Shown one piece after another: positions 1 to 40,001 of a DNA stretch of 64,000 bases (the stretch's first letter is position 1; every line of letters starts with the position of its first letter). A program made the translations under genes and the position numbers. Origin of the DNA: Glycera tridactyla (lineage: Eukaryota); NCBI GenBank assembly GCA_965644265.1, contig OZ286462.1, forward strand, positions 22,134,001 to 22,198,000, written 5' to 3'. The notes beneath the pieces were generated by a model, which was given only the letters and a program-made list of their open reading frames with translations, did no database searches and was not told where the DNA came from.

Positions 1-800
1 GTGGCTTGGCTGGTTTCATGGTCTATTTTGCTACATGCGTGAGTCGGATGGGGCTATATTCTGGCGCTTTTGTAATGAGTCAAATGATTAGTAATATCGA
101 CACGGCAGGTGCCAATCCCACCTCATTATGGATCATTCTGCGTGTTCTTGATACTATAGTCAAATTCATCCTGTTTGTGTCCGTCCTTTTCCTTGATATG
201 CAATTCATTAATTTTGATGGATGTTATCCACCCATGGTGGATGGTAGAATTGAATGATTTGTTAAGTATCCATATATAGATAATTGCCAATGGAATCAAG
301 TCTGGTTTTCGCAGTGTATTTGTTTACTCATTTCTCAAAGGAATCACTGCTTGTGGAGATATCGGACTAAGCACTGCTGGACCCATACAGCCACAGAAGT
401 CTGCCAATGCTGCATCCACTTTGCTCTCTTTCAATTTGCGACAGAGGAAGCCAACCACCACCAATAGCATTCAGATTCAATCCCCATTCATGCGTCATCC
501 ATTTTTACTATCAACGTACTTTCTTGAATAGTGTAGACATTGGAGGAGTATGATTCGTTTTTGTTGTAAATGCATGAATGCTATCAGCCTCTTACAGGTA
601 ACACAACTTTTCCCGCATCTCTTCTGAGATTCATAGCGTTCACACAAATCTCATCCGAGGACTAAATTGTGAGCACAATACCGAATCGTATGTTCTATCA
701 CAGCTTGCATGACTCTTTGGAATGATTGACCTCTGGCTGCTATAAATTGTTCGTGAATGGTCACTACTTAATGTGCAGATGATATATCATGGAGATATGA
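1..800 (-). mobile_element. Highly degenerate Gypsy-like pol relic
   Basis: Minus-strand translation near 650-760 gives SFQRVMQAVIEHTIRYCAH, resembling the LTR RT motif FQRxMxxVL..YxDD. Bases 1-230 are visibly homologous to 8005-8230. Many stops. Confidence 0.35.
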
Positions 801-1660: not shown

Positions 1661-3250
1661 TGAATGCTCCACCTCCTGTTCATTGTAGGGGCACCACAAT
1701 ATAGCACATATGGTGCAGCCGTGATGTTCCTTTATACTGAGATGATGTTACACCTCCTGAGTGATATGTATCTGTCCATTTAGATTATACGATAATTCAG
1801 TAGATACTACAGTAATTCATAGTTTTATATAGGGTTGATTGCACAGTTTCAAGGCAATACGTGTCTCATAAAATCGAGCATCACCAGAGAACTGACCGTC
1901 GACTGCTGCCATTGGAAAACACCATAGAAATAAAAGATTACATACACAGACAAGGCTATCCACCCTTGAAATGCGTTTTTTTTTTCATAAAGAAAAAACT
2001 GAAACTGATGACATTGAGATATCGGAAATCAGGCTTTATTCAGGTTGTGTGATTTTCATTTCCATATAAATATACATATGCCTCTACATGAGATGAACCA
2101 CAACAAATATTTATCCTGGTATCAGCGCATGATGTTGTGTGATTTTCATATGCAGCAGCAATGGCAGATATCTCTATAGGGTGTACCATAGATAAGAGAA
2201 AACAGGACAATAAAACTGTAGGAAACGATGTCACATATTGATAGATGGAACTGCGGGATTCACATCCCACACATTCTTTGAACAACACAATTCTCAGTTT
2301 TGCCCCCCCCCCCCCCCCCGACTGTAGGCTTCATGACACATCAGTGACCTTCAGATCATGGACCACTATAGTCGAGATGCTATGACCCTAATTCTACCTC
2401 TGACATTACCAAATGTCAGACACCAGACCCCAGAACGACCCAACTGTTTGGCTGTTACCATAGGGACATCAAATCAGCTTTGACATGACTGCAGTGAACA
2501 GTGTACATGTTCAGACCCGGGAAGGTCACTCAACTGGGAGGAATTGCCATTATACATGATCAATAACAGTGCTGACTACAACCTGTATATTGAAATATTA
2601 CCTGAATAGTGATCTGGATCAGTGCTGTTACAATCAGGGCTACTAGCAAGTGAACCACAAGTAGAGGGATGAGAAACTTTATATTTTCCCTTCCACTACC
2701 GGCTTGGGAATTATGTCAACACCCCAATTTTCCTTCAATTTTCCCAAACTGCCACACATCAGGTCAGCCAGATGGTATACTCCTGTACTGCATACTCTCC
2801 CTTTTTGAAATGGTATCAGCAATGATGTCTTGACTACTTGCTTGGGATATGCACTAGTCTTACAACCGAATTGCATGATATTTCCATATGAAAGAGCCAA
2901 AAAAGTCTCACTTATGTGTGAGATGAATGTGAGATTGTGGAAAATGAGGAAGCCTTGGGATATTTCAACACAAACACACACACTCTCACACATTCACATG
3001 ATCATACATACAAACACATGTCCAATGCCTTCTTGTATCCACTTCCACTGATGTACATTTCAAAATGATCAATCTCCTTTGGATGGATTTCATATATGCC
3101 CCAAATCACATGCACTATTTATCATAATAAACTTGTACCTACACTTCTAATCACTACTACATATAAATGATGTCCATGAAGCTGTCCTGCCTTTTTAAAC
3201 TATCCTTACAATTAGATGGGCAATTTATCATTTTTCAGCATAGGCTAACG

Positions 3251-3554
3251 ATGGAGTCCTGGATATTGTTCATACTCTGGACCCTCCTGGAACCAGGTAG
3301 TGCTGTGGATGATGCAATGATGAGGCAGGTCAGGTATATTCACACTGCATCCACTGATCATGATACATGCACCAGCATGTGTCAAATACATCAATGTACC
3401 CAGCAATCTTGTCTACTCGAATGCAGCAGAATGTGTCAAAGAATGCAGTGTAATGTGTATGGAGTGAAACCAGGGCATTGTGCAATTTGCCCTGGATGTA
3501 TCAGCAACTCATCAGCCCCAGCAGGACAGGAGTCTCTCCAGATCTACAATAAGG
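3251..3554 (+). CDS. C-type lectin gene copy 1, coding exon 1 (signal peptide + 10-Cys domain)
   Basis: Acceptor tttttcag ends at 3238, ATG at 3251, hydrophobic signal MESWILFILWTLLEPGSA, donor AAG G|gtgagt at 3555 (phase 1). Paralogous exons of identical 304-nt length lie at 13118 and 60915. Confidence 0.9.
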
Positions 3555-11771: not shown

Positions 11772-13117
11772 ATATTTCATGAGGTGCACCACAAATGAGA
11801 GGGAACAGAGCCAAACAATGACACTATAGAAAACGATGTCAAATGTGGATAGCCTTCAGGAGGCGAATACCCATCAGGCCCTGAAACCCAGGGTTGGGCC
11901 ATGTACCACTATGTGAATCCTTGACATCCTCAACACCAGTCACGTCATTCTTATCGGAATAGGCAAACCCAGGACCAAGCCCAGGACGTCCCAATCGGTC
12001 ACGCTCCGCGATCTGGATACGCTCAAGATGCTACGACCCTATTTGGGAGCCTATCAGGTACCATCAGTAGGACAACTCTGCCTAGAAATAGCATAATTGG
12101 AGAAAACCTTGATTCTACCTCCGACATTAGCAAATGTCAAACACCAGGCCCCTAGAAAATCTGATTAGGTCGTTTGCTGACATTTCCACAGGCTACCGAT
12201 GAGGCGGTCCCACCGAAACTTTTATCATTGGAGTGGTTTGCCTCATCAACTATGGCGAAATATGGGCACTATATGATCAGCCCTGTCCAGCTGTGATGTC
12301 ACAATGTCAAACAACCAACCTGCAGTGATTGTCTGTTACCATAGTGAAACCGCATAAGCCTTGAGAGAACAGGCTGTGAATGTTCAGTTCCGGTGACGCC
12401 ATTTAGCTGGCAGGAAGTGGCAATGCCACATCTACACAATATACGTCACCAATATGGGTCTGGCTACAGCATGCATTGATTTCCATTCGTAACATGTGCA
12501 TATTGACATCTGGCCAGTAATCTGGACCAGTCCTCTTCTAATCAGGACTAATAGCGAGTGAACCTGAAACAAAAGGGTAAGTAAAATCATACTTGTGCTT
12601 TTCACAAGCATTTTCCATATAATGTGAACTACTATTTTTATTTCACACTGCCAAAGATCAAGTCAGCCTGACAATATATCCCTGTACTCAATCCTTTCTC
12701 TTTTCCGAATGGCATCTGCAGAGATGTCTTGACTCCTCGCTTGGGATAGGCACTAGTCCTGCAACCAAATTTCATGATATTCCTATATGAGTGAGCCAGA
12801 AAGATCCGCATTTATGTGTTGGATGAATATTAGATTGTAGAAAATGAGGATGGCTTGAGATATTTCAACACACAAACATACATGTGGACACATGTACACT
12901 GCTTTCAAGTATCCATGTCCACTGATGTATATATAAAAATTCTTTCTATGCATTTCTTGTATGCACCAAATCACATGCACAATCCTCCATAATCAAGTGG
13001 TATCGACATGTATAATTGCTGCTGCAAATCAATGATGACCATGAAGTTGTTCTGTCTTTTCTCATACTATCCTTACAATGACATGGGCAATTTACCATTT
13101 TTCAGCAAAGGCTGACG

Positions 13118-13421
13118 ATGCAGTCCTGGTTGTTGTTCATACTCTGGATCCTCTTGCAACCAGGTAGTGTTGTGAACAATGTAATGGTGAGGCAGGTGAG
13201 GTATATTCACACTGCATCCATCGATAATGAAACATGCACCAGCATGTGTCAGATACATCAATGTACCCAGCAATCTTGTCCACTTGAATGCAGCAGGATG
13301 TGTCGGAGAAGGCAGTGTAACATGTATGGAGTCGCACAGGGGCATTGTGCAATTTGCCCTGGGTGTATCAGCAACTCACTAGCCCCAGCAGGACAGGAGT
13401 CTTTCCAAATCTACAGAAAGG
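13118..13421 (+). CDS. C-type lectin gene copy 2, coding exon 1
   Basis: Paralog of 3251-3554: 304 nt, 10 Cys, donor AAG G|gtgagt at 13422. A possible 5'UTR exon donor aaaagg|gtaagt lies near 12577. Confidence 0.88.
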
Positions 13422-13998
13422 GTGAGTTTCAAACATATTTTGATACACAGTTTACATTATCATTGAAAAGACACATAAACTTATGGATTTTTCTATTGAA
13501 GTCCTTCTTGCTCGACTGGAGATAGCATTGGTTGTGAACTCAATCAATTTGCCACTGTACCTACAAGTCAAGGTTTTGGCTTACATAGGATGCACGAAGC
13601 GATGGATTGGTTTCAGCGGCCAGCACCCCCTTCTAGCAACCGCCTCGGCCGCACTCGAGACCGTGAAATGTGATCAGATTCCGCTTTTTCGCCGCTCAAA
13701 TGAACTCACTTTCCCCGCCAAGCGGCTAGCAGCTAGCTTTCATTCCAGGAAACAAATAATTCGTTCAAGTCAATTAGATTTGAAGATTTAAAGCAGAAAC
13801 CAAAATGATCTCAGTTTGAAAAATCTTTTCTTTCATATAGACTGGCTGGTGCCAGTACCTGGAGTCGCAAGATGAAATCAGCAAGAAGTTCTCCTCCCTC
13901 CTGACAATGGCTGGTTTAGTAACTGATCAGCTTGACCTTGGTGTCACTGATAGAGGAACGGCCACACTTATGTGTACATCATTTACCCAAGAACAATA

Positions 13999-14054
13999 AA
14001 CAGCAAATTATCTAGGATGAGACTGAATCATGAGCTGAGACTTTTTCAAAATAT
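13999..14054 (+). repeat. Left terminal inverted repeat
   Basis: aacagcaaattatctaggatgagactgaatcatgagctgagactttttcaaaatat; its reverse complement is at 40002-40057 with one mismatch. Confidence 0.9.
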
Positions 14055-14305
14055 CTACAAAAAAGGAAAGTGCCCATTTTTTGAAGAAATGATTCATTCA
14101 AGAAATGGTCCTCATCAATATGTAGTATTGGATGAAATCCCAGAAGTTGGAGCTATCCCGCTGGTGAATGTGCAAACCCAGAGAGAACAGGATATTTGTC
14201 AATAAGTGAGTCATCATAAACAAACTCTCACCGACTGTCACCATGTGGATTTTTGCCAGTGAACCTGATGCATTCTGCCTGGAAACCAGGAAAATCACTT
14301 GTCAG

Positions 14306-15352
14306 TCTAACATTGTGACATGACACAACCTTAGAAAGCATGCTGCACATTGCTGCACAATGGACCAATTCATGCCAGACTAACCTTGTTCCATGGCACA
14401 ACCTTAGTCACTATGATGCATATTGCCTGGAAAGCCTGGACAGCCACTTGGCAGACTAACCTTGTGCCACAGCACAACCTTAGAAACTATGCTGTACAAG
14501 GGATCATTATCTGCCAGACTAACCTTGTGCCATGGCACAACTTTGGTCAGCATGATGCATATTGCCTGGAGACCTAGACAGCCATTTGCACACTAACCTT
14601 GTGCCATGGCACAACCTTAGAAACTATGATCTACAGGGGATCATCTGCCAGACTAACCTTGTGCCATGGCACAACCTTAGTCAGCAGGATGCAAATTGCC
14701 TGCAGACCTGGACAGCCATTCTGTAGACTAACCTTGTGCCACGGCACAAACTTAGAAACTATGATGTACAGGGGATCATTATTTGCCAGACTAACCTTGT
14801 GCCATGGCACAACCTTAGTCAGCATGGAGACCTAGACAGCCATTTGCACACTAACCTTGTGCCATGGCACAACCTTAGAAACTATGATCTACAGGAATCA
14901 TCTGCCAGACTAATCTTGTGCCATGGCACAACCTTAGTTAGCATGATACATATTGCCTGGAGACCTAGACAGCCATTTGCACACTAACCTTGTGCCATGG
15001 CACAACATTAGAAACTATGATGTACAAGGGATCATTATTTGCCAGACTAACCACGTGCCATGGCACAAACTTAGTCAGGATGATGGACATTGCCTGGAGA
15101 CAGCCACTTGGCAGACTGACCTTGTGCCATGGCACAACCTTAGAAACTATGCTGCGCAAGGGATTATTATTTGCCAGACTAACCTTTTGCCATGGCACAA
15201 CCTTGGTCAGCACGATGCGTATTGCATGTAAACCTAGACAACCACTTGGCAGACTAAGCTTGAACCATTGCACAACCTTAGTTAGACAGTATGCTACACA
15301 TGTACACCTGGACACCTAGACAGCCACTTGGTAGACTAACTTTGTGCCGACT
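14306..15352 (+). repeat. Left subterminal array: about 15 copies of ctaacc-TTGTGCCATGGCACAA-ccttag with alternating spacers
   Basis: 16-bp perfect palindrome core. Period alternates about 60-63 and 70-77 bp between two related spacer types. Confidence 0.95.
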
Positions 15353-17440: not shown

Positions 17441-20400
17441 TTATATCTCATCATATTCAGCAAGCACATTGCGCGCATATAATGGGAGTCGACATCCCTT
17501 TGATGTCAGGGCAAAGCCTCCAGAAATTATACACTTCCTGGAGACTTCCTCCAGCCATGCCTCTCGTTCTTTGAGGCATGGCACCCAGGCAGTGGTCATG
17601 CACCCGGTGAACCACTCCAGGGTCACTTCCGTTTGACGAATCGCAACAATCTTTCCTACTTGGGGCCATTCGTCCATATATCTGATTTTATCGACCAAAA
17701 CCATATCACCGATATTGAGTCCTTCATTCCTGGGAGCCTTCTTCCCGATTGTGACAACCTAGAAAATATAGAAAGAATCTATCATCAGGGTGTGGAAATA
17801 CAGCATTAGTCAGGTAAATTTTCGGGGACATCCAGAGATGCTACATGTGCTAATTTTGGGTCCAAGACTAATTCTTGGCTATTGTTCTGTGTAGGGAGTG
17901 AAACTTTATATATTTGATGGATGAGATATGGACAAGTGTAATGTCCACATCGACTTCATTTCTATAGATGTACACTGGAAATCCATAGAACTATGGGCAG
18001 AGTTAATAAGGTAGGTAAAAGTTACATAAAAGTTCGAAACCTTACAAGCCAGCCTACCCTATGACCTCCAAACATCTTGTTTGTACAGATATTGTGATCA
18101 CACATCTCGAGTCTGATACTGACTCTGAAAAAATCAGAAATATCGAATGATTATGAGACTCTGATATAACAGACTCATAATGAGACTGCAGGACTTGATT
18201 CGAGTGTGTCTGTGCTCAAATGTTCATTCAATCCTCTCATAACTAGTCTTGGATAAGGCCTACATCACTCCCCACATAATCTACTGATATTTCTATTGTA
18301 CTGATCATGTAAAACTATTACCTCCCTGATAGATGGACTTTTGATTGATTGATTGACGAACTTTATTTTGGAACAGCATATACAATATATGTTGATATTA
18401 CATCCTTGGTCAGAACATTGTTCACGTCTAAGTTGTGTCAGTGGCAGCAAGAGTATTTTGAATATTACCTAGTCATTTTGTCAAAATATCGGTATATTTT
18501 TGGTAGTCATGTATAATAACTCTATCATGAGTAAGCAGTCGACTTCCTCAGTGATTCAGTATTCACATAAGATATGTAGAAGTATGCAGTGTATCAACTT
18601 CCGATATGTGAACAAAACAATATTCAAAAGGGTCTGAACCGAAGATAAGGATTGTCCCTTAGATATGCATGAATGTTTTCAGTTCAACTTCAAATGATTG
18701 GATAGGCATATATTCAAAATCATGGTAGGACTGGCAGTAATTGTTCCAAGTAACAGCAGCATGACATGTAAAAGCACCCTCGTTCAATTTCAATCTTGTT
18801 TGTAGTTTTTGCAATAGCCTCCTTGCACCAGATTGTTTGTCATGTTCATGTGATCACTCGACAAACTTGCACAAATTTGGCACTCCATACTTGATGACTT
18901 GTTGATGGGTTGTTAACTTCAGTCTAATATGTTCTGGAGTTCAGATAGCTACATGTCCATTGGACAGACTCATTGTTAAAACGTATCTTTTGAGCTTTGG
19001 ACTTACCGGATGTACTTTGTTAGCACAAGGTGCTCCCTCCATTTCCTCAGTCTCCTCTTCCACTCGTTCATTTGTTCTGAGACCGGGCAGAAGCCATTCA
19101 ACCACGACCACCTTTCCATCTGTAAACAATGATATAGCTGATGGAAGTATAAGCTTTACCTGCATATAGGAATGAAATGAAATGTTGGGGTTTTAGGTCC
19201 ATTTTCGGCACTTGAGTAGGCTGAATCAGGCCGCCTGCCAAGGAGGAGCAAAGATGAAGGGTGAAATGTTCCTGCATGGTAGGACCGGAGATTGAACCCC
19301 AGACCCATTGCACACAGCCTAGTATTCTACCACTAAGCCACCAAGGCAGGCCCTGCATATAGGATAGGGCCAGTTGAAATATATGATAATTGGTCGGTTT
19401 GCCAGTGAATCAGTTATGCACCTCAGCACTCAGTCAGCATGAGAGCATTTTCATATGACAAGTGTATGATAGTACTAGTTCATTACAAAGAAGATAATGA
19501 GTGGGTATCATTTTGTTGTTGTAATGTATATTTTACTTTGCACCACCTTCACACAACCTAACCTCAAGGAAATGACCCCAACACATTTTTTTCACTGATG
19601 TTGACAGTCTGCTGACTCCCTTAATTCATTCATTCAAGGCATGCAAGTCAACATAGTCATTGAGTCAGAAATTGAGCATTTGTATATGAGTGCAAAAAAT
19701 TACAAAAAGCTTTTTCATAGCAAGTATGTGGCTTGTCCCCCACTTGGTAACAGAAGCTAGGACATATGAGGTTCATGAGCAGCAAATTGACACTCCAGAT
19801 GATAGGTCTCTTTGAGTTATCCTGATGCATGACATGATATTTTGTCCTACCTTCACACAATCTGTCATCGATGAAATTACTCCACCACATTTTCTCAGCC
19901 GATGTGAGCAATCGGCTTGCCCCCGCAATTGACTCATTTAAGGCCCCCAAGTCCACTTTATCATAATTGCAAAGCACTTGTCGTGGGACACCACTTGGAG
20001 TTGACAAAATCAGTGGAGTTTCGCAGATGTTCCATCTCTGTTGCACAGAAAAAAGACATAATCATTTCCATGCAAAATGGCTAATGCACTGAAATTGCAA
20101 TGAATATTGTGGCAGGATGGTGTAAATTTGAGAATCTTCAATGTATCTGATATCCTCACCAATATCTGTGAAAGCAATCTTCATGATCGAGCTACTGTGT
20201 GATGAAAGATTCTTTGAGGGAATTCATCAAGGATACTAAACACATGATGGTTGGTGCTCCTTGTGACTAAAGTTCATGTTAACATCATCATTAAAGTCTT
20301 TTTTTTGCAATGTGGGCTGGTGCCTTTGTAAGGGTTTGGAATTAGGCAAAAGATAAATTCACTTCAGTAAATTGACATATAAGTATGTGAATCATGACCG

Positions 20401-23400
20401 AATGACATCATTTTATGGTTTATGAGGCTTTCTTCAGAAAGATTTATGTCCACAGCACCATGTTTGCTATGATAAACATATACGCTTCCTTATCCTAATT
20501 CAATTTGATGATATGATTAATGAATATTTATGCCCCTATTGTTGGTTGGGGGCAGGCTGTACCTGCCAAGTAGCTTGCCCCAGCCCAGCATGAAGGCCAG
20601 GGTGTGAATTATGGGTGGGTCTGCCAATGTTTAGCAGTATTCGACCATGTTCGGTGCTGAAACTACTTTTGCAAGATCATGCTAGATGATCAGACATGCC
20701 AACGCAGCTTTGGACTACCACATGTGAAATCCTTCTAGGGTTACATGCAAGCAACAAATGAGCTTGGTAGGTGTCGATTACAAACACACCATGATCAAAA
20801 GTTTAAGAATGATTCCAGCAATACTGACCTTGTCGGTTGACCATTCTTTGTAATTAATAAGGGCCCTGCCATCTCCATTTCGAACAATTTTGAAGGCATG
20901 CGGTGTTGAATGCCCCTTTATGGCTTGCAGGGCATCACCATCAAACCAGCCGCCAACATCATACAGTCCTGTGATGACCTCAGCAGCTGGAGATGGTGAT
21001 GTACATTCTGTCCATACTGTGAGCAACTTGTCTACAGTCTCTGCCGCTTTTCTTGTCAATGCCGTTGACAATCTATCAATGTAAAGTATCACATTTTTGT
21101 AACATGCTGGCATTATAATCAAATAAAAATGTCATTCATGTTTTGTCTCTTGTGCAAGTTCCTTCATATTTCCTTGGATTATTCAGTTTCTTTCAATGAA
21201 TTAAACATCACAATCACATCAAATTAGCACTATGGAATAGTCTTCGAAAAAAACGAGTATATCCTCAGATGTAGTGAAATAGTGATTATAAGTTGATTTT
21301 TGTGTGCTATTTTGTGCTATTTTGTGTGCTTCCAGAAATAGAAGGATAAGAAGCAATGTTTTTTGGTACAGCGATGAATTGATGCATTTCTAATAAACAA
21401 GGGCAAAATACAAACTCCACAAGATTTGGAGATATCAGTTTACACTGCACATCCAGAAACAAAGGCTTTATCTCATTTATCTGATCAAATATACAGATAT
21501 TGAAAGATCCAATTGAGAATTGGAATTACTTTGATAGCACGTCTATACCCGATAGTCAGCCTCTAGTTTGGGAAGTGTCATGAACTGATGGTCAAGGCAT
21601 GATACTTGCTGACTTTGATGTTGGAGGTTTGGTTTCAGGTTGATCATCACATGAATGTGACGTTTTCAGTGATGTATCAGTTGTTGAGTATTGCGGTTGA
21701 TACTTCACAGCTAAGAGAGAACTAAATTTCTCATGATCTCTTCCTCCAATTCTTGATAAAAGGATGACTATATGACCGTTGGGTGAGAATGCAATACCAA
21801 ATTCCAGAAACACACAATACCCAACTCGGCCTTCAGCCTTTTGACAACTGTTGAAATTTGCACCTCGTTTTATACTGCGTTTTTACGTCATGACCATATA
21901 GCCCTACTACATGATATCATGATTGAGTGTATTTCTGGAGTGACATTCAAGGAGCCACATTAGTCCAAATGATACCTCCTGATGCCAAATTCACACCATA
22001 CATGTTATCAATTCAATAATACATACATTTGAACAAATACGCACATACAGAACTAGTTGAAAATCATATCATTTTGTGCACAGATTCTCACCTTGAGAAA
22101 ATTTGGTCAATATCAGTATGCGTATGTCCTGTCATCAAGAATGACACTTTCACTTTCCTGAACAGCCCCATCTCAACCAATAAACACATCATGGCTAACA
22201 CAAACCTGCAATCATTATTAACACATGATTACATACTGAGAGTGACGTGCTCATCCCAGTAATTATGACTGATTCAGGTACTGTTAGATATGTCAGCAAC
22301 CAAGCATGTAAGGTTAGAATGAAAGGTTAGAATTTTTTGGTTACACACACACACAGTGGCACATATGATCAATTATCATCCGATGTCGAGTCTAGTGTGT
22401 TGGGAAGCTGCTGCGACCGGCCTGCCTTGGTGACATGCTTTACTTCAAGGGGGATTAGCGCTACGCGAATCCGCCCCCTGATTGGTCGCTTTGATCACGT
22501 GACTTTTTGAATCGGCGGGATTTTTCAAACTTTCAAGGCTTTCAAATGTCATTTTCTTTTGTTTTTAAAGTAAAATTGGATGATAAATTCAGAATGCATC
22601 TCATGCTGGGCACGTGAAGGCTGTATAGGCCTCATAGCAGTACCTGAGATGGCACAAGTGGCCGGGGATGGCTACTTGGCCTTCACGGCCTCCCCATGCC
22701 CGGCACTGGATGTAAGCCAAGAGAATGTATGTATGTTTCTTACCTATTTTTGTTTTCCCGAAAGCAGTTGTCCATCTGGAGATACAAAACTGGTGACAGA
22801 GAATTTCTAAAGTGATACAGAGTGTTCAATATCACATGGATTGTCATATTAGCATCATGAGGAAATTGGCCAAAGTCAAAGTATCCAAAAATACCGCGTC
22901 CATGTGCTATCACACCAGTCAAATGGACTTTCAGTTTCCACATAGTTGAGGAATACTTGGAAATATTCGCAAATCTTGGCAGGTACAGTTTACTCTGGTC
23001 CATCCCATCTGTTATGATGGACAGGTATTTTTCAGGATGGTCCTTGGCCTTTTGTGCATGCTTGGCATATTTCACTCTTTCATCCCTGCAACACAGTTGT
23101 TGAATTAGCCATCATGTGAATGCAAACAACTCCTCACACAATCTCATCACTTGAATGGTTGGTTGTTATCTAAATCTCATCCGCCCCGTGCAAGCTTATT
23201 CAGGGTCCTGTGAAATGCCTAGGGTTTCAGCAATTCAGGCCTATTTTCAATTCACTCATGTTCCTAGGTGTCATCCACAGACTCTCTTTGTGTGCATTAT
23301 CCATTGACTCAGATCTGTGCCTACCAGTGTATGCGAATTACCAGCACTATTTTTTCATATTTTTGGTGAAGATACTGCGGCATGGCATGACAGTCTTTTG

Positions 23401-24753
23401 TGCTTAGTAGATAGAATCAACAAATGGAAATCATCCTGTACAGGTTTTCTGTGCAATGGTGATTCGATAAGCTAGAGGAACGTATTTCTGAATGAACTCT
23501 GTGTGAGTCTATGAGTGTGTATGTGTGTGCATGTGTATGTTTGCCAACTCAATTTAGAACAGAGGTCAAAGTGCAATCTTCAATGTACAAAGTGCTTATT
23601 TAGTAATAAGAACACTGGTTGGGCAAATCTCACATATGCCTTTGCCTCCTTTTCCATTACAGAAATGGAAAAAGGGCTGTTGTTACCAAACTTGTAGGAC
23701 GGAATTTTAACAAAAGATTACTTTTTGAGCAAAAACATCGGAAATACTCATGCACAATTGTGGGTCGTATCAAACCTTTGTTGCTTAAGATGACAATCAC
23801 GTTCTTTCAGGAGAAGTCGCCGCTCATTCTTGTCTCGAGTGCGCTCAAGTATCTGCTTTATTTCTGTACATGGATCACATTTACTGAACCGGGAAGTCTA
23901 CAATTCAAAAAAGAAATCGACCTTTCAATCTTGCCAGGCAAATTTTTTGGATTCCTTATCAACCGTTCTTAAAATCTCATGTTCATGGATATCTTTTCTG
24001 AACATTTGCCAATAAGGAATACTGCCAGGGGCATCCCTGGAGAAGTATTCTAGTGTAGTTACAAAACTGTATCATGCACATCTTAAGATGACAAGGAAAA
24101 TGTACCTTGGGAATGGAAACATTAGGTCTTTCTTCTCGCCATACCCGAAGAAAGTGTGTTTGGGATATACTGATGGAGGTCTCTCTTCTCATCATGCCAT
24201 AGATGCTCCATTTTGTATAAGAACTAGGAAGGTTGATCTTCACTGAATCTGGCATCTGTAAAAAAATTTGAAAAACAGACCTTGAAATTGACAGCATATC
24301 ATTGAAATGATGATATTTCATTACTTGCAATTTTCCATTTTGATATTATTCCCCTGGGCATTAGAGAACCTAGTACAATGGACACCCACCAACAACATAC
24401 AGATTGATGCACTCGATACATGTACCGTGTCACCCACTAAATCTCATCGGATCTGAGAATTCAACAGTTACAAGCCACATTTCTACGATGATAATTCTAG
24501 GCACACAGTCAATCAATCAATTTCAATCCCATGATCACATCCTCATCATTATTGTGATGATGAAACTATAGAAATAGTAATTAGAATCATACATGAAACA
24601 TCAACAACAAAAATCATTTGCTGAGTCATTATGAGAAACTCAACTTGTCACCACATTTGCTGGCAAAGAGATCCAACCAGGCCACAGCTTGTGTCACATT
24701 ACTCGTACAGTTTCCTTGACGAGGGCCAGTGGGGTCATTCATCACAGCACCAT
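17441..24753 (-). CDS. Sola-like (Sola1-type) DDD transposase, at least 9 coding exons, 565 aa recovered, 5' exon(s) uncertain
   Basis: Exons 24753-24644, 24255-24106, 23897-23776, 23085-22744, 22205-22092, 21072-20829, 20037-19851, 19119-19007 and 17758-17441 join in frame (1700 nt) with no stops. Motifs: AWL..GDKMP, RFSKCDPC, DGMDQ, LYLQMDNCFRENKN, FLMTGHTHTDIDQIFS, GHSTPHAF. All junctions are GT-AG except the donor at 24643 (TTGAGT). Confidence 0.85.
19172..19351 (-). mobile_element. tRNA-derived SINE with 13-bp target-site duplication
   Basis: Minus strand: A box GGTGGCTTAGTGGTAG, B box GGTTCAATCTCC and a (catttc)n tail. cctgcatatagga is duplicated at 19159-19171 and 19352-19364. Confidence 0.85.
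21560..21900 (-). repeat. Dispersed repeat, inverted copy of about 35450-36000
   Basis: The reverse complement of 21830-21900 (tatatggtcatgacgtaaaaacgcagtataaaacgaggtgcaaatttcaac) matches 35488-35540. The tttggtattgc..catatagtc block is also shared. Confidence 0.7.
22440..22530 (+). promoter_or_regulatory. CpG-rich promoter-like island inside a transposase intron
   Basis: GC box ccgccc 22471-22476, inverted CCAAT (attgg) 22481-22485, E-box tcacgtga 22495-22502 and ggcggg near 22514, in otherwise CpG-poor DNA. Confidence 0.5.
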
Positions 24754-24849: not shown

Positions 24850-27800
24850 TCCGTGCTTGTAGGGATTGCGTGACCGATATCATACTTAAATTTATTTTGA
24901 AGATGCACAAGGTTCTTCCCTAGGTGGACTGGCATCAGAAAAAATTTTTTTCACTTCTGTTCAAGCCAGTGGTCAATGAAAGATCACAAATGTGGCTCTC
25001 AAATCGAAAGAGAGTAGAAAAGTCAAAGGGCACCTACAGGATTTGAACCCAGTACCTTCCATACAGCTAGGGAAAATGATCAACAGCAGCACCCTTACTA
25101 CATCAGCTATCTGTCCCTGTTGGATTTTCCCTGACTAATCTTGTACTCGACTTTATTCTGAATATGCCCCAGGTTCTTCCCGAGGTGGACTGTCATCAGA
25201 AAAACATTTTTCACTTCTGGCATCACAAGAACATTTTGACTTTTGTTCAAGCCTTTTTTGAGAGAAGGATCACGAATGTGACACTCGAATCAGAAAAAAG
25301 TAGGAAAATCATAATAGGCACCAGCAGGATTTGAACCCATCACCTTCCATACAGCTAGAGAAAATAAACAGCAGCAGCACTCTTACTTCATGAGCTATCC
25401 CTGCTTGTAGGTATTGCTTGACCGATATCATACTTAAGTTTATTTTGAATATGCACAAGGTTCTTCCCTAGGTGGACTGGCATCAGAAAAACATTTTCCA
25501 CTTCTGTTCAAACCATTGGTCAATGAAAGATGACAAATTTGGCTCTCAAATCGAAAGAGAGTAAAAAAGTCAATGGGCACCTACAGGATTTGAACCCAGT
25601 ACCTTCCATACAGCTGGGGAAAATGATCAACGGCAGCTCTTACTCCATGCGCTATCTGTCCATATAGCTTTTAGCTTGACTAATATTATACTTGACTTTA
25701 TTTTGAATATGCCCCAGGTTCTTCCCTAGGTGGACTGGCATCAGAAAAACATTTTTCACTTCTGTTCAAACCATTGGTCAATGAAAGATGACAAATGAGG
25801 CTCTCAAATCGAAAGAGAGTAGAAAAGGCAATGGGCACCTGCAGGATTTGAACCCAGTACCTTCCATACAGCTAGGGAAAATGATCAATAGCAGCACTTT
25901 TACAACATCAGCTATCTGTCCCTATTGCAATTTGCTTGACTAATCTTATACTTGACTTTATTCTGAATATGCCCCAGGTTCTTCCCTAGGTGGACTGTCA
26001 TCAGAAAAACATTTTTCACTTCTGTTCAAACCATTGGTCAATGAAAGATCACAAATATGGCTCGTAAATCGATAGAGAGTAGAAAAGGCAATGGGCACCT
26101 ACAGGATTTGAACCCAGTACCTTCCACACAGCTAGGGAAAATGATCAACAGCAGCACCCTTACTACATCAGCTATCTGTCCCTGTTGGATTTTCCCTGAC
26201 TAATCTTGTACTCGACTTTATTCTGAATATGCCCCAGGTTCTTCCCTAGGTGGACTGTCATCAGAAAAACATTTTCCACTTCTGGCATCACAAGAACATT
26301 TTGACTTTTGTTCAAGCCTTTTTTGAGAGAAGGATCACGAATGTGACACTCAAATCAGAAAAAAGTAGGAAAATCATGATAGGCACCAGCAGGATTTGAA
26401 CCCATCACCTTCCATACAGCTAGAGAAAATAAACAGCAGCAGCACTCTTACTTCATGAGCTATCCGTGCTTGTAGGTATTGCTTGACCGATATCATACTT
26501 AACTTTATTTTGAATATGCACAACGTTCTTCCCTAGGTGGACTGGCATCAGAAAAACATTTTCCACTTCTGTTCAAACCATTGGTCAATGAAAGATCACA
26601 AATTTGGCTCTCAAATCGAAAGAGAGTAGAAAAGTCAATGGGCACCTACAGGATTTGAACCCAGTACCTTCCATACAGCTGGGGAAAATGATAAACAGCA
26701 GCGCTCTTACTACATCAGCTATCTGTCCCTATTGGTTTCTGCTTAACTGATCTTATACTTGACTTCATTTTGAATATGCCCAAGGTTCTTCCCTTGGTGG
26801 ACTTTGATCACAAGAACATTTTGACTTTTGTTCAAGCCATTCTTGAGTGAAGGATCACGAATGTGACACTCAAATCAGAAAAAAGTAGGAAAATCATGAT
26901 AGGCACCAGCAGGATTTGAATCCATCACCTTCCATACAGCTAGAGAAAATGAACAACGGCAGCACTCTTACTTCATGAGCTATCCGTGCTTGTAGGTATT
27001 GCTTGACCGATATCATACTTGACTTTATTTTGAATATGCACAAGGTTCTTCCCTAGGTGGACTGGTATCAGAAAAACATTTTCCACTTCTGTTCAAACCA
27101 TTGGTCAATGAAAGATCACAAATGTGGCTCTCAAATCGAAAGAGAGTAGAAAAGTCAATGGGCACCTACAGGATTTGAACCCAGTACCTTCCATACAGCT
27201 GGAGAAAATGATCGATGGCAGCGCTCTTACTCCATGCGCTATCTGTCCATATAGCTTTTAGCTTGACTAATATTATACTCGACTTCATTTTGAATATGCC
27301 CCAGGTGCTTCCCTAGGTGGACTGGCATCAGAAAAACATTTTCCACTTCTGTTCAAACCATTGGTCAATGAACGATCACAAATTTGGCTCTCAAATCGAA
27401 AGAGAGTAGAAAAGTCAATGGGCACCTACAGGATTTGAACCCAGTACCTTCCATACAGCTGGGGAAAATGATCAACGGCAGCGCTCTTACTCCATGCGCT
27501 CTCTGTCCATATAGCTTTCAGCTAGACTAATATTATACTTGACTTTATTTTGAATATGCCCCAGGTTCTTCCATAGGTGGACTGGTATCAGAAAAACATT
27601 TTCCACTTCTGTTCAAACCATTGGTCAATGAAAGATCACAAATTTGGCTCTCAAATCGAAAGAGAGTAGAAAAGTCAATGGGCACCTAAAGGATTTGAAC
27701 CCAGTACCTTCCATACAGCTGGGGAAAATGATCAACCGCAGCGCTCTCACTCCATGCGCTATCTGTCCATATAGCTTTCAGCTTGACTAATATTATACTC

Positions 27801-30800
27801 CCCAGGTTCTTCCCTAGGTGGACTGGCATCAGAAAAACATTTTTTCACTTCTGTTCAAACCATGGTCAATGAAAGATCACAAATGAGGCTCTCAAATCGG
27901 AAGAGAGTTAAAAAGGCAATGGGCACCTCGAGGATTTGAACCCAGTTCCTCCCATCAAGCTAGGGAAAATGACCAACAGCAGCGCTCCTACTCCATCAGC
28001 TATCTGTCCCTATTGGTTTCTGCTCGACTGATCTTATACTTGACTCCATTTTGAATATGCTCAAGGTTCTTCCCGAGGTGGACTGGCATCAAAAGAACAT
28101 TTTTCACTTCTGATCAAACCATTGGTCAATGAAAGATCACAAATGTGGCTCTAAAACCGAAAGGGAGTAGAAAAGTCAATGGGCACCTACAGGATTTGAA
28201 CCCAGTACCTTCCATTCAGCTAGGGAAAAAAAGTGATACCTGCACTCTTACTCCATGAGCTATCTGCCCTCATATTTTTTTGTTTGACTAATATCAGACT
28301 TGACTTTATTCTGGATATGCCCAAGGTTCTTACCCCGGTGAACTGGCATCACAAGAACATTTCGACTTTTGTTCAAGCCTTTTTTGAGAGAAGGATCACG
28401 AATGTGACACTCAAATCAGAAAAAAGTAGGAAAACCATGATAGGCACTAGCAGGATTTGAACCCATCATCTTCCATACAGCTGGAGAAAATAAACAGCAG
28501 CAGCACTCTTACTTCATGAGCTATCTGTGCTTGTAGGTATTGCTTGACCGATATCATACTCAACTTTATTTTGAATATGCACAAGGTTCTTCCCTAGGTG
28601 GACTGGCATCAGAAAAACATTTTCCACTTCTTTTCAAACCATTGGTCAATGAAAGATCACAAATTTGGCTCTCAAATCGAAAGAGAGTAGAAAAGTCAAT
28701 GGGCACCTACAGGATTTGAACCCAGTACCTTCCATACAGCTGGGGAAAATGATAAACAGCAGCGCTCTTACTACATCAGCTATCTGTCCCTATTGGTTTC
28801 AGCTCAACTGATCTTATACTTGACTTCATTTTGAATATGCCCAAGGTTCTTCCCTTGGTGGACTTTGATCACAAGAACATTTTGACTTTTGTTCAAGCCA
28901 TTTTTGAGTGAAAGATCACGAATGTGACACTCAAATCAGAAAAAAGTAGGAAAATTATGATAGGCACCAGCAGGATTTGAACCCATCACCTTCCATACAG
29001 CTAGAGAAAATGAACAACAGCAGCACTCTTACTTCATGAGCTATCTGTGCTTGTAGGTATTGCTTGACCGATATCATACTTAACTTTATTTTGAATATGC
29101 ACAAGGTTCTTCCCTAGGTGGACTGGCATCAGAAAAACATTTTTCACTTCTGTTCAAACCATTGGTCAATGAAAGATGACAAATGAGGCTCTCAAATCGA
29201 AAGAGAGTAGAAAAGGCAATGGGCACCTGCAGGATTTGAACCCAGTACCTTCCATACAGCTAGGGAAAATGATCAATAGCAGCACTCTTACAACATCAGC
29301 TATCTGTCCCTATTGGATTTTGCTTGACTAATATTATACTTGACTTTATTCTGAATATGCCCCAGGTTCTTCCCTAGGTGGACTGTCATCAGAAAAACAT
29401 TTTTCACTTCTGTTCAAACCATTGGTCAATGAAAGATCACAAATATGGCTCGTAAATCGATAGAGAGTAGAAAAGGCAATGGGCACCTGCAGGATTTGAA
29501 CCCAGTACCTTCCATTCAGCTAGGGAAAAAAAGGAATTCCTGCACTCTTACTCCATGAGCTATCTGCCATTATATCATTTTGCTTGACTAATATCAGACT
29601 TGACTTCATTCTGAATATGCCTCAGGTACTTACCATGGTGAATTGGCATCACAGGAACATTTTCACTTTTGTTCAAGCCATTTTTGGGTGAAAGATCACA
29701 AATGTCATGATAGGGACCTGCAGGATTTGAACCCATCACCTCCCATGCAGCTAGGGAAAATAAACAACAAAAGCACTCTCTCAATGAGCTATCTGTCCTT
29801 ATATTTTTTGGCCCGCCTGATATCATACTTTCCTCTATTCTGAATATGCCCCAGGTTCTTCCCTAGGTGGTCCGGCATCAGAAGAACATTTTTCACTTCT
29901 GTTCAAACCATTGGTCAATGAAAGATCACAAATGTGACTCTAAAATCGAAAAAGAGTAGAAAAGGCAATGGGTACCTCGAGGATTTGAACCCAGTTCCTC
30001 CCATACAGCTAGGGAAAATGATCAACAGCAGCGCTCTAACTACATCACCTATCTGTCCCTTTTGGTTTCTGCTTGACTGATTTTATACTTGACTTTATTT
30101 TGAATATGCCCCAGGTTCTTCCCTAGGTGGACTGGCATCAGGAGAATATTTCTCACTTCTGATCAAACCATTGGTCAATGAAAGATCACAAATGTGGCTC
30201 TCAAATCAAAAGAGAGTAGAAAAGGCAATGGGCACCTCGAGGATTTGAACCCAGTACCTTCCATACAGCTAGGGAAAATGATCAACAGCAGCACTATTAC
30301 TCCATCAGCTATCTGCCCTTATATTTGTTGCTTGACTTATATCAGACTTGACTTCATTCTGAATATGCCCCAGGTTCTTCCCTTAGTGAACTGGCATCAG
30401 AAAAACATTTTTCACTTTTGTTCAAGAAATTGTTGAATGAAAGATCACAAATGTAGCTCTCAAATCGAAAGGGAGTAGGAAAGTCAATGGGCACCTACAG
30501 GATTTGAACCCAGTACCTTCCATTCAGCTAGGTAAAAAAAGGAATTCCTGCACTCTTACTCCATGAGCTACCTGTCCTTATACTTTTTGCTTGACTAATA
30601 TCAGACTTGACTCCATTATGAATATGCCCCAGGTTCTTACTTCGGTGAACTGGCATCATAAGAACATTTTCACTTTTGTTCAAGCTATTTCTGAGTGAAA
30701 CATCACAAATAAGGCACTCAAATTAGAAGAAAGTAGGAAAATTATGATAGGCACCTGCAGGATTTGAACCCATCACTTTCCATACAGCTAGGGACAATAA

Positions 30801-31100
30801 TCAAAAGCAGCGCTCTTAATCCATGAGCTATCTGTTCTTATATTTTTTGGCCTGACTGATATCATACTCTACTCTATTCTGAATATGCCCCAGGTTCTTC
30901 CCTAGGTGGTCCGGCATCAGAAGAACATTTTTCACTTTTGTTCAATCCATTGTTCAATGAAAGATCACAAATGTGGCACTCAAATTGGAAGAAATTAGAA
31001 AAATCATGATAGGCACCTGCAGGATTTGAACCCAGGACCTTCCATACAGCTAGGGAAAATAATCAAGAGCAGCGCTCTTACTCCATGAGCTATCTGTCCT
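24850..31100 (-). repeat. Satellite of 24 x about 260 bp, each monomer carrying a tRNA/SINE-like A box and B box
   Basis: 24 copies of caggatttgaa(c/t)cc (reverse complement GGGTTCAAATCCTG, B box) at about 260-bp spacing. Upstream on the minus strand is gatagctcatggagtaagagc (A-box-like). Two monomer subtypes. Confidence 0.95.
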
Positions 31101-31295: not shown

Positions 31296-34200
31296 GCTGA
31301 ACCCAGGATTCGACAAAAGCGCAGGTCTGATGATGAGATCCCAGTAGAGCCGGAGATCCAAGTGAAAAGGATCAGAATGAATCCTGCCGGTGATCTCGAC
31401 ATCACTGCAGATGTCCCTCCTACAGATGAAGATCCGATCAACCCCCGATGGAGCGAAAAGTATATAGGTAACTTGATATCTAACATAGCTCACTTCCCAT
31501 ATTCAAGTTTTCCTATTCATTATGTACAACACTGGAGCTGGATTTCACAATACAATGAACAGTATCCCTTGACCACTGTAATAAGTGTATGGTAAGCATA
31601 CATTCCATGAGTAACAAATTTATTCATTTGTCGACAGTTAGATAAAAAATAATGTCTTTGATAAGCCTGGTGATATAGGATGGAATGCATCTTCAAAATG
31701 AATAAGTAGTGCTTTTACAGTTAAAGACTTTTTTTTGCAGGTAGATACAGAGTTCAAACGAACCAACTGATCCCTCCGCATGAGGAGCTACTGTGCAGAC
31801 CATTGAGGGAGAAATGGGTGAGGGAGATCAAAGAAATGATCGCACAGAGGAATTCTGAGGTTATTACACGGCTACCTGTTATGATCGATGGTACCACTAA
31901 GCAGGAATTCAGATCAGAGGTGGGTGTCATATATTTGGAGGCTATCACCCATCCCTTGAACAAAATTGTGATATACAATTAGAGATTGAGTGCACAAATT
32001 TCAGTCATGCATCTTCAATCAAATTATAAAGAGCTGTATTACGATATTCATTGATGCAATCAAGATGTACGCTGACAATATATTTCCATGTTTTGTTGAA
32101 ACCCACTTTCAACTTTTCTTCTATCCAAGACATTCATAGTGCATCCAAATATTTCATCACCTACAACATTGGTTAACACAATTTTTTTTTCACCGGATTT
32201 AGTCAATGTGACTTCTCTTCTTTTGAAAATGAGCTATTGTTAGAAATTGAGTTATCTGTTATGACCTCACACTTTCAGAACATATCCGTATACAAATTCA
32301 TGACACTGGGGGGCAATCATGTGCGATCAGCCATACATGAGCTCCTTAAAGAAGAGCCACTGAATGAAAAAATCAGGTAAGTTGAGTCAGTAAGGTATGA
32401 ATATCATCGTCTTTGTTGATGTTGTTGCCATTGCCTTGCCCTTGTTATCCTGGAAGTGTAACTGTACACCAGCATTCCTGATTGACAATGAATGACTTTC
32501 CTTTACCCACTTCTATTGAGTGCATCTCCGAAAGTTGCCCCTTGGCTACTCATCTTCTAATGAACAGGTTAAGAATCACATATAGAAGCATCTTCCTGGA
32601 CTTATATCTATGGGACCATTCCCAAAAAATAATTTCATCCTGACCTTATCCAATCTCAAATACATATTATCAACCAGAATGTCATGGGATTTTCATATAG
32701 GAACACTGATATAACTCTCATGATATCCTATTTCAACATTGATCTAGGGCATCAACACTTATCTCAAGTCTGCAATGGGTTGCTCTGATGTTTGAATGGC
32801 TTATTTGTAGAACAATCGAAGTCGATTTATATGTTGGTCTGGACACTGAGGAGGCAATTGAAATTGGCTCCCGCCATAATGCATCCAGCAAATGCTTAGG
32901 CGTGACATTTCAAGTAAGTATGAATGCTCAATATTGTGGATCTTCTATGACCCAATAACTATTCATTCTCATCAAAACGTGATATTTAGACTAAAATGCT
33001 AGGTACGCACAATGACAGTTGATGTTCACATCATCCCAAATAGTTGACACACAATACATCACAAACTCTGTGCTTGATATTCAAAATGTACATCTGGCAT
33101 TTTGCCATCTTCCACCTGAAGACAATCGCCAGATTTTTTTTCAACAATCTCAATCTTATATTCTATTGTTAGCTTTATGTTCACGTGGAACAACAAACCT
33201 GCAGGCTATCCAGTTGCAGCAGACAGATGCTGATTTTTTTGTATAATTTTGTAATGGAAATAGTGTGCCCAATTTTCTTTCGACACACTCTTAAGTTAGA
33301 TTGCATTCGCTTGGACAACTGGGGATCATTCTCTCTGTTGACACCACTCAACAGCCTTCTCTCCGCTTTGTGTTCACACTGCTGTGAAACTATGCCTGCG
33401 GACAACTGTAGCAATTGTCTTGGATTGATTTTCACATCAACATATTCTTTTTTAGGACAAACTATATGTCACAAGGAAGCTGGCCTCTCTGGAGAGTGGA
33501 GAAAGTGCCCGGAAGAGAATTGCAAAGGCGATATCAGACATGGAGTTTCAGGTGGGAATTCCTACTCAATATGTGAAATGTTCAGCCCATGGATTAAACA
33601 AAATCAGTGCTGAAATAGCTGCAGCAAACAGACACTGGTTGAAGGTCATTGAGTTGATACTGTGAGTAAGTGTGTGGGCGGAGGGGGGGGGGGTAGTGTC
33701 TTGAAGCAAACGGATACCTCACATGTGACTTGGGAAAAGGAAAATGATGAATATCATCACAATTCATTCATACATGAGAAATTTTAAGTCACCGTATCTG
33801 AGTGTGATTCAGAGTTGCTGCTTGGTGATGGCTACTGTTCATTTGGTAAGTTTTGAGGGGGAATACCGAACAGATCAACAACGCGACACAATTCCAAGTC
33901 ACATCAGTACCACTCACCTTTGTTGTCTGACTGTCTGCCAGTCGGTTGACTCATATAGCTCAGTACAGAGATTGAACCAGATTTAGAAAATGGACAAAAT
34001 TCTGGTCTGGAGTATCACAAAAAAACCAAGGCTATACCACACTTACTAACAAGGTGATAATCTAATGAAACACAGTAGTATGTGTTGATAGATCATGCTA
34101 CAGAAGATGAAACTACCAACAAAATTGAATTACAGCTGTTAATTTAGCATGATATGGTCAGATATGAATTACAAGTTGTTGAGCTATTAGGTAACCCCAC

Positions 34201-37200: not shown

Positions 37201-37498
37201 CATTGATCATTAAAAGTGAAGTGTTGCCCAAGATGATTCATTATGACTCAATCAATAAAACCCCTCTTTTACAGACATTGGACTGACCCGGGCCACTGTC
37301 CCACAAGCGTTTGTGAATTTTTGCACAGAGGCAGTGAATGGAGTGGAAAGAAGTGTGACGGTCAATGTTGATGTATTGTTGGGTGGCATCCGCTGTGATG
37401 ATGAAAAGATAAAAGAATTCGTCGAGAAGAAGAAAAAAGAAATAACAGAACATGTGGAAAGATATTTGCTTTTGAGAACAAGAACATTCGAGGAATAA
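31296..37498 (+). CDS. ParB/Srx-fold protein, 9 coding exons, 410 aa recovered, start exon uncertain
   Basis: Exons 31296-31467, 31741-31919, 32279-32376, 32811-32913, 33456-33551, 34551-34682, 35180-35275, 36368-36500 and 37275-37498 (1233 nt) all have GT-AG junctions, match in phase and contain no stops. FMTLGGNHVRSAIHELL and LYVGLDTEEAIEIGSRHN parallel ParB YxIIAGERRxRA and VRxLxDEEAxExALxEN. Confidence 0.82.
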
Positions 37499-39302: not shown

Positions 39303-39843
39303 TGACTAACCTTGTGCCATGGCACAAGGTTAGTGAGTGATCAGTTGTGATCTGCAGCATTGTAACTAAGGTTGTGCCATGGCACAAGATTAGTTCACAG
39401 TTTCTTCCCTGGACTCAGCTCTGAACATCTCCAGCATGGTAATATGCACCATAGTGACTAAGGTTGTGCCATGGCACAAGGTTAGTCCACAGTCAGTTTC
39501 CTCCCTGAACAAGCTCTGGACATCATGTTGACTAAGGTTGTGCCATGGCACAAGGTTAGGCAGGGGAAATGTCCATGAAAAATCTGCAGCATAGTAACTA
39601 AGGTTGTGCCATGGCACAAGGTTAGTCAGCAGTTCCCTCCCTGGCCCAAGCCCTGATTATCTGCAACATAGTGACTAAGGTTGTGCCATGGCACAAGGTT
39701 AGGCAGGGATTCATACCTGAAATGATCTGCAGTAGAGTAACTAATGTTGTGCCATGGCACAAGCTTAGTCGACAATTAGTTCCCCAATGGCATAGGCTCT
39801 GTACACAACGCTGATGAAGGTTGTACCATGGCACAAGTTTAGT
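39303..39843 (-). repeat. Right subterminal array: 8 copies of ctaagg-TTGTGCCATGGCACAA-ggttag (inverse of the left array)
   Basis: Flanks are the exact reverse complement of the left-array unit. Spacers ending catcatgttgac and ctgcagcatagtaac match the two left spacer types in reverse. Confidence 0.95.
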
Positions 39844-40001
39844 CTGCAATTTGTCCCTGAAACTCCCTGAAGTGACCAACTAATCATTGCCATTTCTAAC
39901 AGTACAATAATACAAGACAGAAAAACTGACATGAGGTGAGGTATCTCAAAATGATCTATATGACTATTTTCTGGAATAATGTGATGTCCCATTTTTTTCA
40001 A

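Follow-up and report, generated by a model that had tools for sequence, protein, structure and literature searches.

The left palindrome array of the 64-kb stretch of DNA analyzed here (the window) belongs to an inverted pair of subterminal arrays in a giant cut-and-paste transposon of 26 kb with Sola1-type ends. The two arrays form a mirror-image pair just inside the ends of this DNA transposon (26,059 bp, 13999–40057), which contains two divergent, intron-rich genes and a 260-bp satellite between them. Judged from the sequences of this element and of two distant relatives, the repeated sites are tentatively regarded as family-specific candidate sites of a ParB-like accessory dimer, which may organize or pair the distant ends.

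Palindrome Arrays and Their Sites

With up to three mismatches allowed, the 16-bp palindrome has 23 matches in the 64 kb, that is, 15 at 14313–15275 and eight at 39312–39836, and it was not found elsewhere in the window beyond these two arrays. Shuffled sequences gave a mean of 0.45 matches, and the number of 23 was reached in none of 100 shuffles. The left subterminal array (14305–15283, forward strand) lies on the side of the transposase gene and consists of 15 copies of a 32-bp dyad in alternating short and long units. The right one (39304–39844, reverse strand) lies on the side of the ParB-like gene and holds eight copies of the same site in the opposite orientation. Both were defined by match count, spacing, and conservation. 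The first-pass annotation had described about 15 perfect palindromes on the left; the 15 copies are real, but only eight of them are perfect, and the other seven carry one to three mismatches. In the right array, seven of the eight are perfect. A truncated half-copy of the site follows the left array at 15334–15348, around position 15342.

The start-to-start distances of the left sites are 73, 76, 63, 74, 60, 75, 63, 60, 59, 74, 63, 69, 63, and 75 bp. Two classes of spacers alternate from unit 2 to unit 14 (approximately 59–63 vs. 69–76 bp), so that the dimeric spacing noticed earlier is borne out, with the exception of units 8 and 12, in which the spacers are shortened. The units of the arrays arose through tandem duplication, and the spacers of the right array are unrelated to those of the left. 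The sites show no significant helical phasing (Rayleigh P = 0.09 for the full set of 21 spacings and 0.87 for the 11 distinct values).

The full site reads GACTAA-CC-[16-mer]-CC-TTAGTC, a 32-bp interrupted dyad whose symmetry is broken at only four of its 32 columns. These four asymmetric positions, the CC pairs, give each site its orientation, and the asymmetric flanks are kept in 22 of the 23 sites. Thus, the flanks do orient the array, as had been proposed, but it had been overlooked that they also extend the dyad to 32 bp. The one remaining site (39305–39334) is now a perfect 30-bp palindrome, having exchanged CC for GG on one side, as if a quasi-palindrome had been corrected by template switching.

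Other readings of the arrays were considered as well. A search for structured RNAs gave five Rfam matches at E ≤ 0.5, all below the gathering score, and no tRNA. A CRISPR-like array was ruled out by the spacers, which are duplicated rather than unique, and a coding repeat was rejected, the ORFs of the array being short and without support. Folding of the array strand yielded no stable unique structure, in a calculation that had no shuffle control at such length. The 28-bp pattern of the site had no exact match in bacterial and archaeal genomes.

Conservation of the Dyad

Within the spacer classes, substitutions affect 7 of 192 core positions (3.6%) and 40 of 429 spacer positions (9.3%), a difference with Fisher P = 0.013 in copies that are not independent. 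These counts refer to 12 of the 15 left units, with units 1, 8, and 15 excluded. The core therefore outlasts the spacers in the comparison that had been suggested, although its advantage within the classes, approximately 2.6-fold, is moderate and falls short of the "much better" conservation first reported. The strong contrast appears between the classes and between the two ends, where the inner spacers show identities of 0.47–0.52, compared with 0.42–0.45 for shuffled sequences, and the cores of the two arrays agree at 94%.

Variation also differs within the site. It is found at 45 of 644 positions of the symmetric columns and at 13 of 92 positions of the asymmetric CC pairs (P = 0.023, again with copies that are not independent). 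All eight variant cores break the dyad and none of them is symmetric; hence, self-correction through hairpins is unlikely to be what keeps the palindrome.

The Transposon and Its Transposase

The terminal inverted repeats of the element begin with AACAGC on the left (13999–14054, forward strand) and end with GCTGTT on the right (40002–40057, reverse strand), and the two are reverse complements of each other at 55 of 56 positions. The tips, AAC...GTT, are flanked by a perfect 4-bp target-site duplication, AATA, at 13995–13998 and 40058–40061. An alternative delimitation with a TTAA duplication and CAG...CTG ends (Sola3-, Kolobok-, or piggyBac-like) was dropped because it leaves a mismatch, whereas AAC...GTT ends with perfect 4-bp duplications are found in all three long elements, namely, this one and the two relatives described below (AATA, TTAG, and ATAA).

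The transposase gene (17441–24753, reverse strand) was modeled by Pfam and a tblastn exon map in nine exons, at 24753–24645, 24255–24106, 23897–23776, 23085–22744, 22205–22092, 21072–20829, 20037–19851, 19119–19007, and 17758–17441. Its product is a DDD-type RNase H-like transposase with Pfam DUF7869 matches (E 1e-25 and 6e-14), and the three acidic motifs conserved in its homologs are presumably the catalytic triad. A profile of the transposase had no match in PDB. The core exon is 54–59% identical to proteins of Mytilus, Mercenaria, and Lytechinus. As read directly from the sequence, the protein has a Cys-rich N-terminal region and a beta-rich C-terminal region, which could be DNA binders.

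The last eight exons are phase-compatible and free of stops. The first exon has no canonical in-phase donor, and approximately 120 N-terminal residues of the homologs could not be located in the window, an HMM having matched only the first modeled exon among 2,835 ORFs. For these reasons, this copy is probably decayed, with the 5′ exons of the transposase missing and a satellite in the middle of the element, and it would be mobile at most in trans.

The satellite (24870–31100) comprises about 24 tandem copies of a 260-bp unit and sits where the 5′ exons of the transposase would be expected. It is probably a later insertion or expansion, because none is reported between the corresponding genes of the two relatives. 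The unit contains a tRNA B-box-like word, GGATTTGAACCC, and has one further copy at 3869; it is probably SINE-derived, and no tRNA or Rfam family was called in it. Two small hairpin-like inserts (35476–35636 and 21754–21900, 70% identical over 152 bp), which lie in introns of the two genes, one per gene, are probably miniature inverted-repeat elements.

The ends and the gene layout match those of the giant Sola1 element of Ectocarpus, Sola1-1_Ec32, and on these grounds the element is placed with Sola1. The AAC...GTT end criterion is drawn from this one curated Sola1 element (AACCG-CGGTT, compared with GGCGG-CCGCC in Sola2-1_Ec32; both as described in PMC12477816). The relevant passages of PMC5751038 and PMC10294476 state no end or target-site rules; the latter gives an average of 5.4 kb for curated bivalve Sola1 consensus elements in a passage without a description of their ends.

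The Surrounding Sequence

The window shows microsatellites, sparse ORFs, LINE retrotransposons, and assembly gaps, and from these features, together with the occurrence of related transposases in Mytilus, Mercenaria, and Lytechinus, it reads as animal DNA. One LINE retrotransposon (47112–53529) has three long ORFs: one ORF1-like with a weak Baculo_FP match, a separate SGNH/GDSL-like ORF of 307 aa (E 3e-4), and an intact endonuclease-reverse transcriptase ORF of 1,031 aa. Broken LINE pieces are also present at 54.4–57.7 and 62.7–63.8 kb. A dispersed repeat family outside the element (at least 300 bp, 73–87% identical) is represented at 3192–3491, 13059–13358, and 60856–61155. Just outside the right end, a pair of 68-bp inverted repeats (40217–40284 and 42004–42071, 91% identical) possibly marks the ends of another element of 1.9 kb that spans an assembly gap.

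Related Elements

Relatives were sought by a transposase-alignment scan of genome records, in which 5 of 73 candidate stretches were confirmed. Two of these five loci are long enough for a whole element, L008 (CBDBZY010000041.1; 13,750 bp) and L010 (CBDBCZ010000012.1; 10,907 bp). They lie in contigs of 589 and 733 kb, respectively, within bacterial genome-bin records, and the contigs are apparently mis-binned eukaryotic DNA, as they contain microsatellites and transposon genes with introns. The short loci L007, L009, and L011 (1.8–4.8 kb) lack the arrays and the ParB-like gene, and they are too short to serve as controls.

Both long relatives have AAC...GTT ends and perfect 4-bp duplications (TTAG in L008, ATAA in L010), and the core of their transposases is 49% (L008) and 43% (L010) identical to that of the window. 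In each of them, an accessory gene lies head-to-head with the transposase (tblastn E 1e-9 to 1e-14). The three sequences, read directly, share a phase-1 intron at an identical glycine ahead of the ParB-like domain.

Dyad arrays are present at both ends of the two relatives, each element with its own palindrome (ACTCAA-NN-TTGAGT and TTGAAATTTCAA). The transposase and ParB sides hold 15 and 8 sites in the window element, 40 and 15 in L008, and 24 and 8 in L010, the larger array always being on the transposase side. Outside the elements, no site was found in 37.9 kb (window), 9.1 kb (L008), and 10.8 kb (L010) of flanking sequence; in the interior, there are three sites in L008 and none in the other two. 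The three elements thus carry three motifs, with stray cross-matches of at most one per motif. The transposase-side sites of L008 are imperfect dyads. The terminal repeat of L010 contains a half-site with one mismatch; in that of the window element no half-site was found, the best match having three mismatches out of eight.

Two local features of the relatives are worth recording. At 14.3–16.8 kb, the transposase-side array of L008 has a period of 42–43 bp within a higher-order repeat of 385 bp. In L010 (12718–13485), an in-frame 57-bp tandem repeat lies where the transposase region ends on its C-terminal side, and the palindrome array follows directly.

The ParB-Like Accessory Gene

The accessory gene of the window element (31296–37498, forward strand) was modeled in nine exons, at 31296–31467, 31741–31919, 32279–32376, 32811–32913, 33456–33551, 34551–34682, 35180–35275, 36368–36500, and 37275–37498. 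All introns are GT–AG, and the 410 codons contain no stop; the start codon is not fixed. An independent protein fragment, P0006, aligns across two of the exon junctions (44% identity over 82 aa), and the product matches the gene model of L008 at 27% over 313 aa (E 1e-28). The accessory genes of L008 and L010 run on into a methyltransferase-like tail. Compared with a phage N6/N4-methyltransferase, the C-terminal 130 residues of the L008 model reach 7.1 bits, a score attained by none of 500 shuffles, and a weak match to a SAM motif is present. The tails gave no Pfam or PDB match and no clear catalytic motif by eye, and they look degenerate. In the window, the tail exons of the relatives were not matched at 30–40.5 kb, nor did the accessory gene match the phage methyltransferase; this absence of an enzyme tail favors a structural role for the window copy.

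The accessory protein is likely to be a remote member of the ParB/sulfiredoxin superfamily, with comparisons that point both ways. The order of elements in its N-terminal domain is the one expected for this superfamily. When an exon of L008 was searched by tblastn against 50,697 phage records, matches at E ≤ 10 were obtained in only four records, which represent two ParB-like genes (E 2–4). A profile built without L008 gave these same two genes scores of 14.0 and 17.5 bits, whereas none of 663 decoys exceeded 4.1; both are ParB-like by the annotation of their records only and have no Pfam ParB match. None of 11 independently chosen phage ParB proteins rose above the decoys, and the profile–profile probability was 0.5%. 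Scans of Pfam, PHROGs, NCBIfam, and PDB gave no ParB match, and tblastn searches with P0006 in phages and plasmids and with an exon of L010 in plasmids returned chance-level matches only. Full-length relatives were found in none of four candidates and none of 474, and two fragments were found among 1.84 billion representatives.

Structure prediction gave AlphaFold models of low confidence (mean pLDDT 36 and 44). With the latter, Foldseek returned nothing at E ≤ 0.001 (sulfiredoxin ranked fourth, E 3.2), and a wide aligner reached a best Z of 3.1.

The arginine-rich GERRxRA motif, which contacts CTP (as described in PMC7333895), is replaced by GGNHVRSA in the window, and by GGLHTLIA and GGNNSRTA in the other two elements. 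A HN motif, with its Asn after an acidic helix, is conserved in all three accessory proteins. This residue falls at the position of the catalytic Asn of ParB, the role of which is described in PMC7333895. A helix-turn-helix (HTH) domain was sought with a profile from the middle region of two sequences, an insensitive test in which none of 13 phage ParB-like proteins exceeded the decoys. No Walker-A/ParA pattern was found in the six frames of 13999–40057, in a search that an intron-split motif would escape.

The language-model neighbors of P0006 include clusters of DUF3723, DUF6551, and ParB_N (0.88–0.91), which are leads only. P0006, a homolog of 31741–32376 of the window, has its DUF3723 neighbor at 0.91, and DUF3723 is described as conserved Starship cargo (bioRxiv 2021.12.13.472469). 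This hints that DUF3723 may also have a ParB-like N-terminus, and that giant elements of fungi and animals may share related accessory proteins; our literature search found no paper joining DUF3723 with ParB.

Candidate Function of the Arrays

The 32-bp dyads are very probably under selection as sites for a protein with two-fold symmetry. The earlier idea of selectively conserved dyads bound by a dimeric protein of the element is supported by the core-to-spacer comparison, by the symmetric columns, and by the arrays of the relatives, and the two genes it had in mind, for a transposase and for a ParB-like protein, are both present. Both genes occur in every array-bearing element, so their co-occurrence cannot tell which of the two products reads the dyads. 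The accessory dimer is favored, since dimers of the ParB family are well matched to long dyads and since the terminal repeat of the window element has no half-site, which sets two kinds of site apart. It is thus reasonably likely that the accessory dimer reads the dyads, leaving the short terminal inverted repeats to the transposase.

If the accessory dimer is the reader, it somewhat more probably than otherwise loads onto the arrays, bridges them, and pairs the far-apart ends for the transposase. Taken as a whole, this reading is the favored one, although it falls somewhat short of even odds. In detail, many dimers would load on the arrays 0.2–1.3 kb inside each end, bridging between the loaded dimers would mark and pair ends that are 11–26 kb apart, and the paired ends would let the transposase cut and move the whole element. 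The bridging of distant DNA has been described for ParB itself (PMC7333895). Site and protein would drift together, with one palindrome per family, which is our proposed reason why each family has its own. Against the pairing of ends stand the near half-site in the terminal repeat of L010, the remoteness of the ParB homology, and the imperfect dyads of L008, and the methyltransferase-like tails of the relatives point to a role in chromatin.

According to this last alternative, which is possible though rather unlikely, the ParB-like protein binds the arrays to protect or mark chromatin, through anti-silencing or DNA modification, similarly to VANC of the VANDAL elements, and does not pair ends. 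The tails of L008 and L010, with the L008 score unmatched by shuffles, are in its favor, as are three reports: Sola1-1_Ec32 has a ParB-methyltransferase gene for which self-modification is proposed by its authors (PMC12477816), the PAG3 gene of red-algal Plavaka elements adjoins inverted-repeat arrays (bioRxiv 2025.02.11.637652), and the targets of VANC are family-specific, tandemly amplified motifs (PMC5735166). On the contrary, the arrays of the window element are well preserved even though no enzyme tail can be detected in its accessory gene; they lie only at the two ends in mirror orientation, whereas VANC motifs are described in internal non-coding regions (PMC5735166); and the tails of the relatives look degenerate, with no Pfam or PDB match.

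It is likewise improbable, on balance, that the transposase itself binds the arrays as plain subterminal repeats, with the ParB-like gene being a passenger or active elsewhere. Binding of subterminal repeats by the transposase is known from other superfamilies, as in Hermes, and a subterminal position, a left-right asymmetry, and a family-specific sequence are typical of such repeats (PMC10368747). The Cys-rich and beta-rich regions of the transposase could bind DNA, and the L010 terminal repeat has its near half-site. However, these are long two-fold dyads placed 200–300 bp from the tips, compared with the short, tip-concentrated repeats of Hermes, the terminal repeat of the window element has no half-site, and the mean length of the curated bivalve Sola1 consensus elements is 5.4 kb (PMC10294476).

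A true parS-like centromere, on which a CTP-gated ParB clamp spreads and retains or segregates an excised, extrachromosomal element, is very improbable. Tandem 16-bp dyads downstream of a ParB-like gene, as in sopC of the F plasmid, and the conserved Asn at the position of the catalytic ParB residue are compatible with it, but GERRxRA is replaced in three of three elements, a Walker-A motif was found in no frame of the element, and the arrays occupy both ends, tied to hallmarks of integration. The analogy with parS drawn in the first-pass annotation accordingly holds for the architecture only: the 16-mer agrees with the parS sequence quoted there at 6 of 16 positions, GERRxRA is replaced, and neither a ParA motif nor a ParB HTH was detected. 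Neutral tandem repeats, with a palindrome kept by hairpin-driven correction and copying between ends, would agree with the tandem origin of the units and with the one self-corrected site at 39305–39334, but this explanation is hardly tenable and largely refuted by the comparative pattern, as asymmetric flanks are kept in 22 of 23 sites, none of the eight variant cores is symmetric, spacers are randomized while cores remain 94% identical between ends, and two distant elements share the layout with sequences of their own.

The pairing of ends by the accessory dimer may be carried one step further, in a version that is speculative and doubtful. Sola1-type giants of animals would have co-opted a prokaryotic ParB-parS-like module, in which a nucleotide-gated dimer would occupy the dyad arrays of the two ends and bring these together over 10–26 kb by bridging or condensation, enabling giant size, with a site that switches from family to family. 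If so, the elements would offer a natural series of orthogonal ParB-site pairs working in animal nuclei.

The arrays bear on how cut-and-paste transposons of 10–30 kb join their ends and on what their accessory genes do. The three elements have small, defined, family-specific dyads at both ends beside a candidate protein, which makes the matching of protein and site testable. If the ParB-like protein does pair the ends, a part of bacterial segregation would be reused for transposition in animals, and this would be a lead for transposon tools with large cargo.

Comparison with Known Systems

The nearest DNA architecture is that of sopC of the F plasmid, in which 16-bp dyads are repeated in tandem with a 43-bp period downstream of a ParB-family gene, as seen in the sequence compared. 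The 43-bp period shared with the L008 array is probably a coincidence. A CCAYGG center is common to sopC and the 16-mer of the window (9–10 of 16 positions), a weak likeness noticed post hoc. As in ParABS systems, repeated 16-bp palindromes lie near a ParB-like gene; the ParA partner was not found. Unlike ParB/parS and sopB/sopC, the element has no detected ParA or HTH and no GERRxRA, its gene is spliced and part of a chromosomal transposon, and the arrays occupy the two ends of that transposon.

In En/Spm (TnpA) and Harbinger (a Myb-like protein), a second protein encoded by the element binds repeated subterminal motifs and aids the transposase. These proteins have unrelated DNA-binding folds and shorter motifs, and their elements belong to other superfamilies.

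VANDAL elements are similar in that an accessory protein, VANC, has family-specific target motifs, tandemly amplified within the element (PMC5735166), and such amplification of a family-specific motif is found in all three elements here. They differ in being Mutator-like plant elements with short, non-palindromic internal motifs, and no ParB domain is reported in the description of VANC (PMC5735166).

Among the giant elements of algae, Sola1-1_Ec32 (21.5 kb, brown alga) resembles the window element in its AAC...GTT termini, in the 4-bp length of its target duplication, which is biased to end in A, and in having its ParB-like accessory gene and its transposase on opposite strands (PMC12477816). 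It differs in its accessory protein of 1,104 aa with a DNA methyltransferase domain, compared with approximately 410 aa without one in the window, and it has an imperfect terminal repeat of 282 bp; the comparison is with its description, the relevant part of which does not mention palindrome arrays (PMC12477816). The red-algal Plavaka (EnSpm) elements, DNA transposons as well, also combine giant size with a ParB-like accessory gene, PAG3, and with tandem inverted-repeat arrays, which are proposed to be PAG3 binding sites (bioRxiv 2025.02.11.637652). On the other hand, they have a transposase of another superfamily, PAG3 is fused to a 2OG-oxygenase, and the description puts the arrays next to the gene (bioRxiv 2025.02.11.637652), whereas those of the window element are a mirror pair at both ends. 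Fusions of ParB, HTH, and methyltransferase domains are also described in chlorophytes and chytrids (PMC4738411); in the window gene, no DNA-modifying enzyme domain was detected alongside the ParB-like domain.

A ParB-like accessory protein with inverted-repeat targets is therefore already proposed in print for algal transposons. In the literature covered, which leaves aside Repbase and most subscription journals, only these algal cases were found, and animal elements, mirror arrays at both ends, a switch of palindrome, or an enzyme-less version were not encountered. What appears new here is that the elements are of animal type and have a mirror pair of arrays, one per end, that the palindrome switches between families, and that there is an accessory protein without an enzyme.
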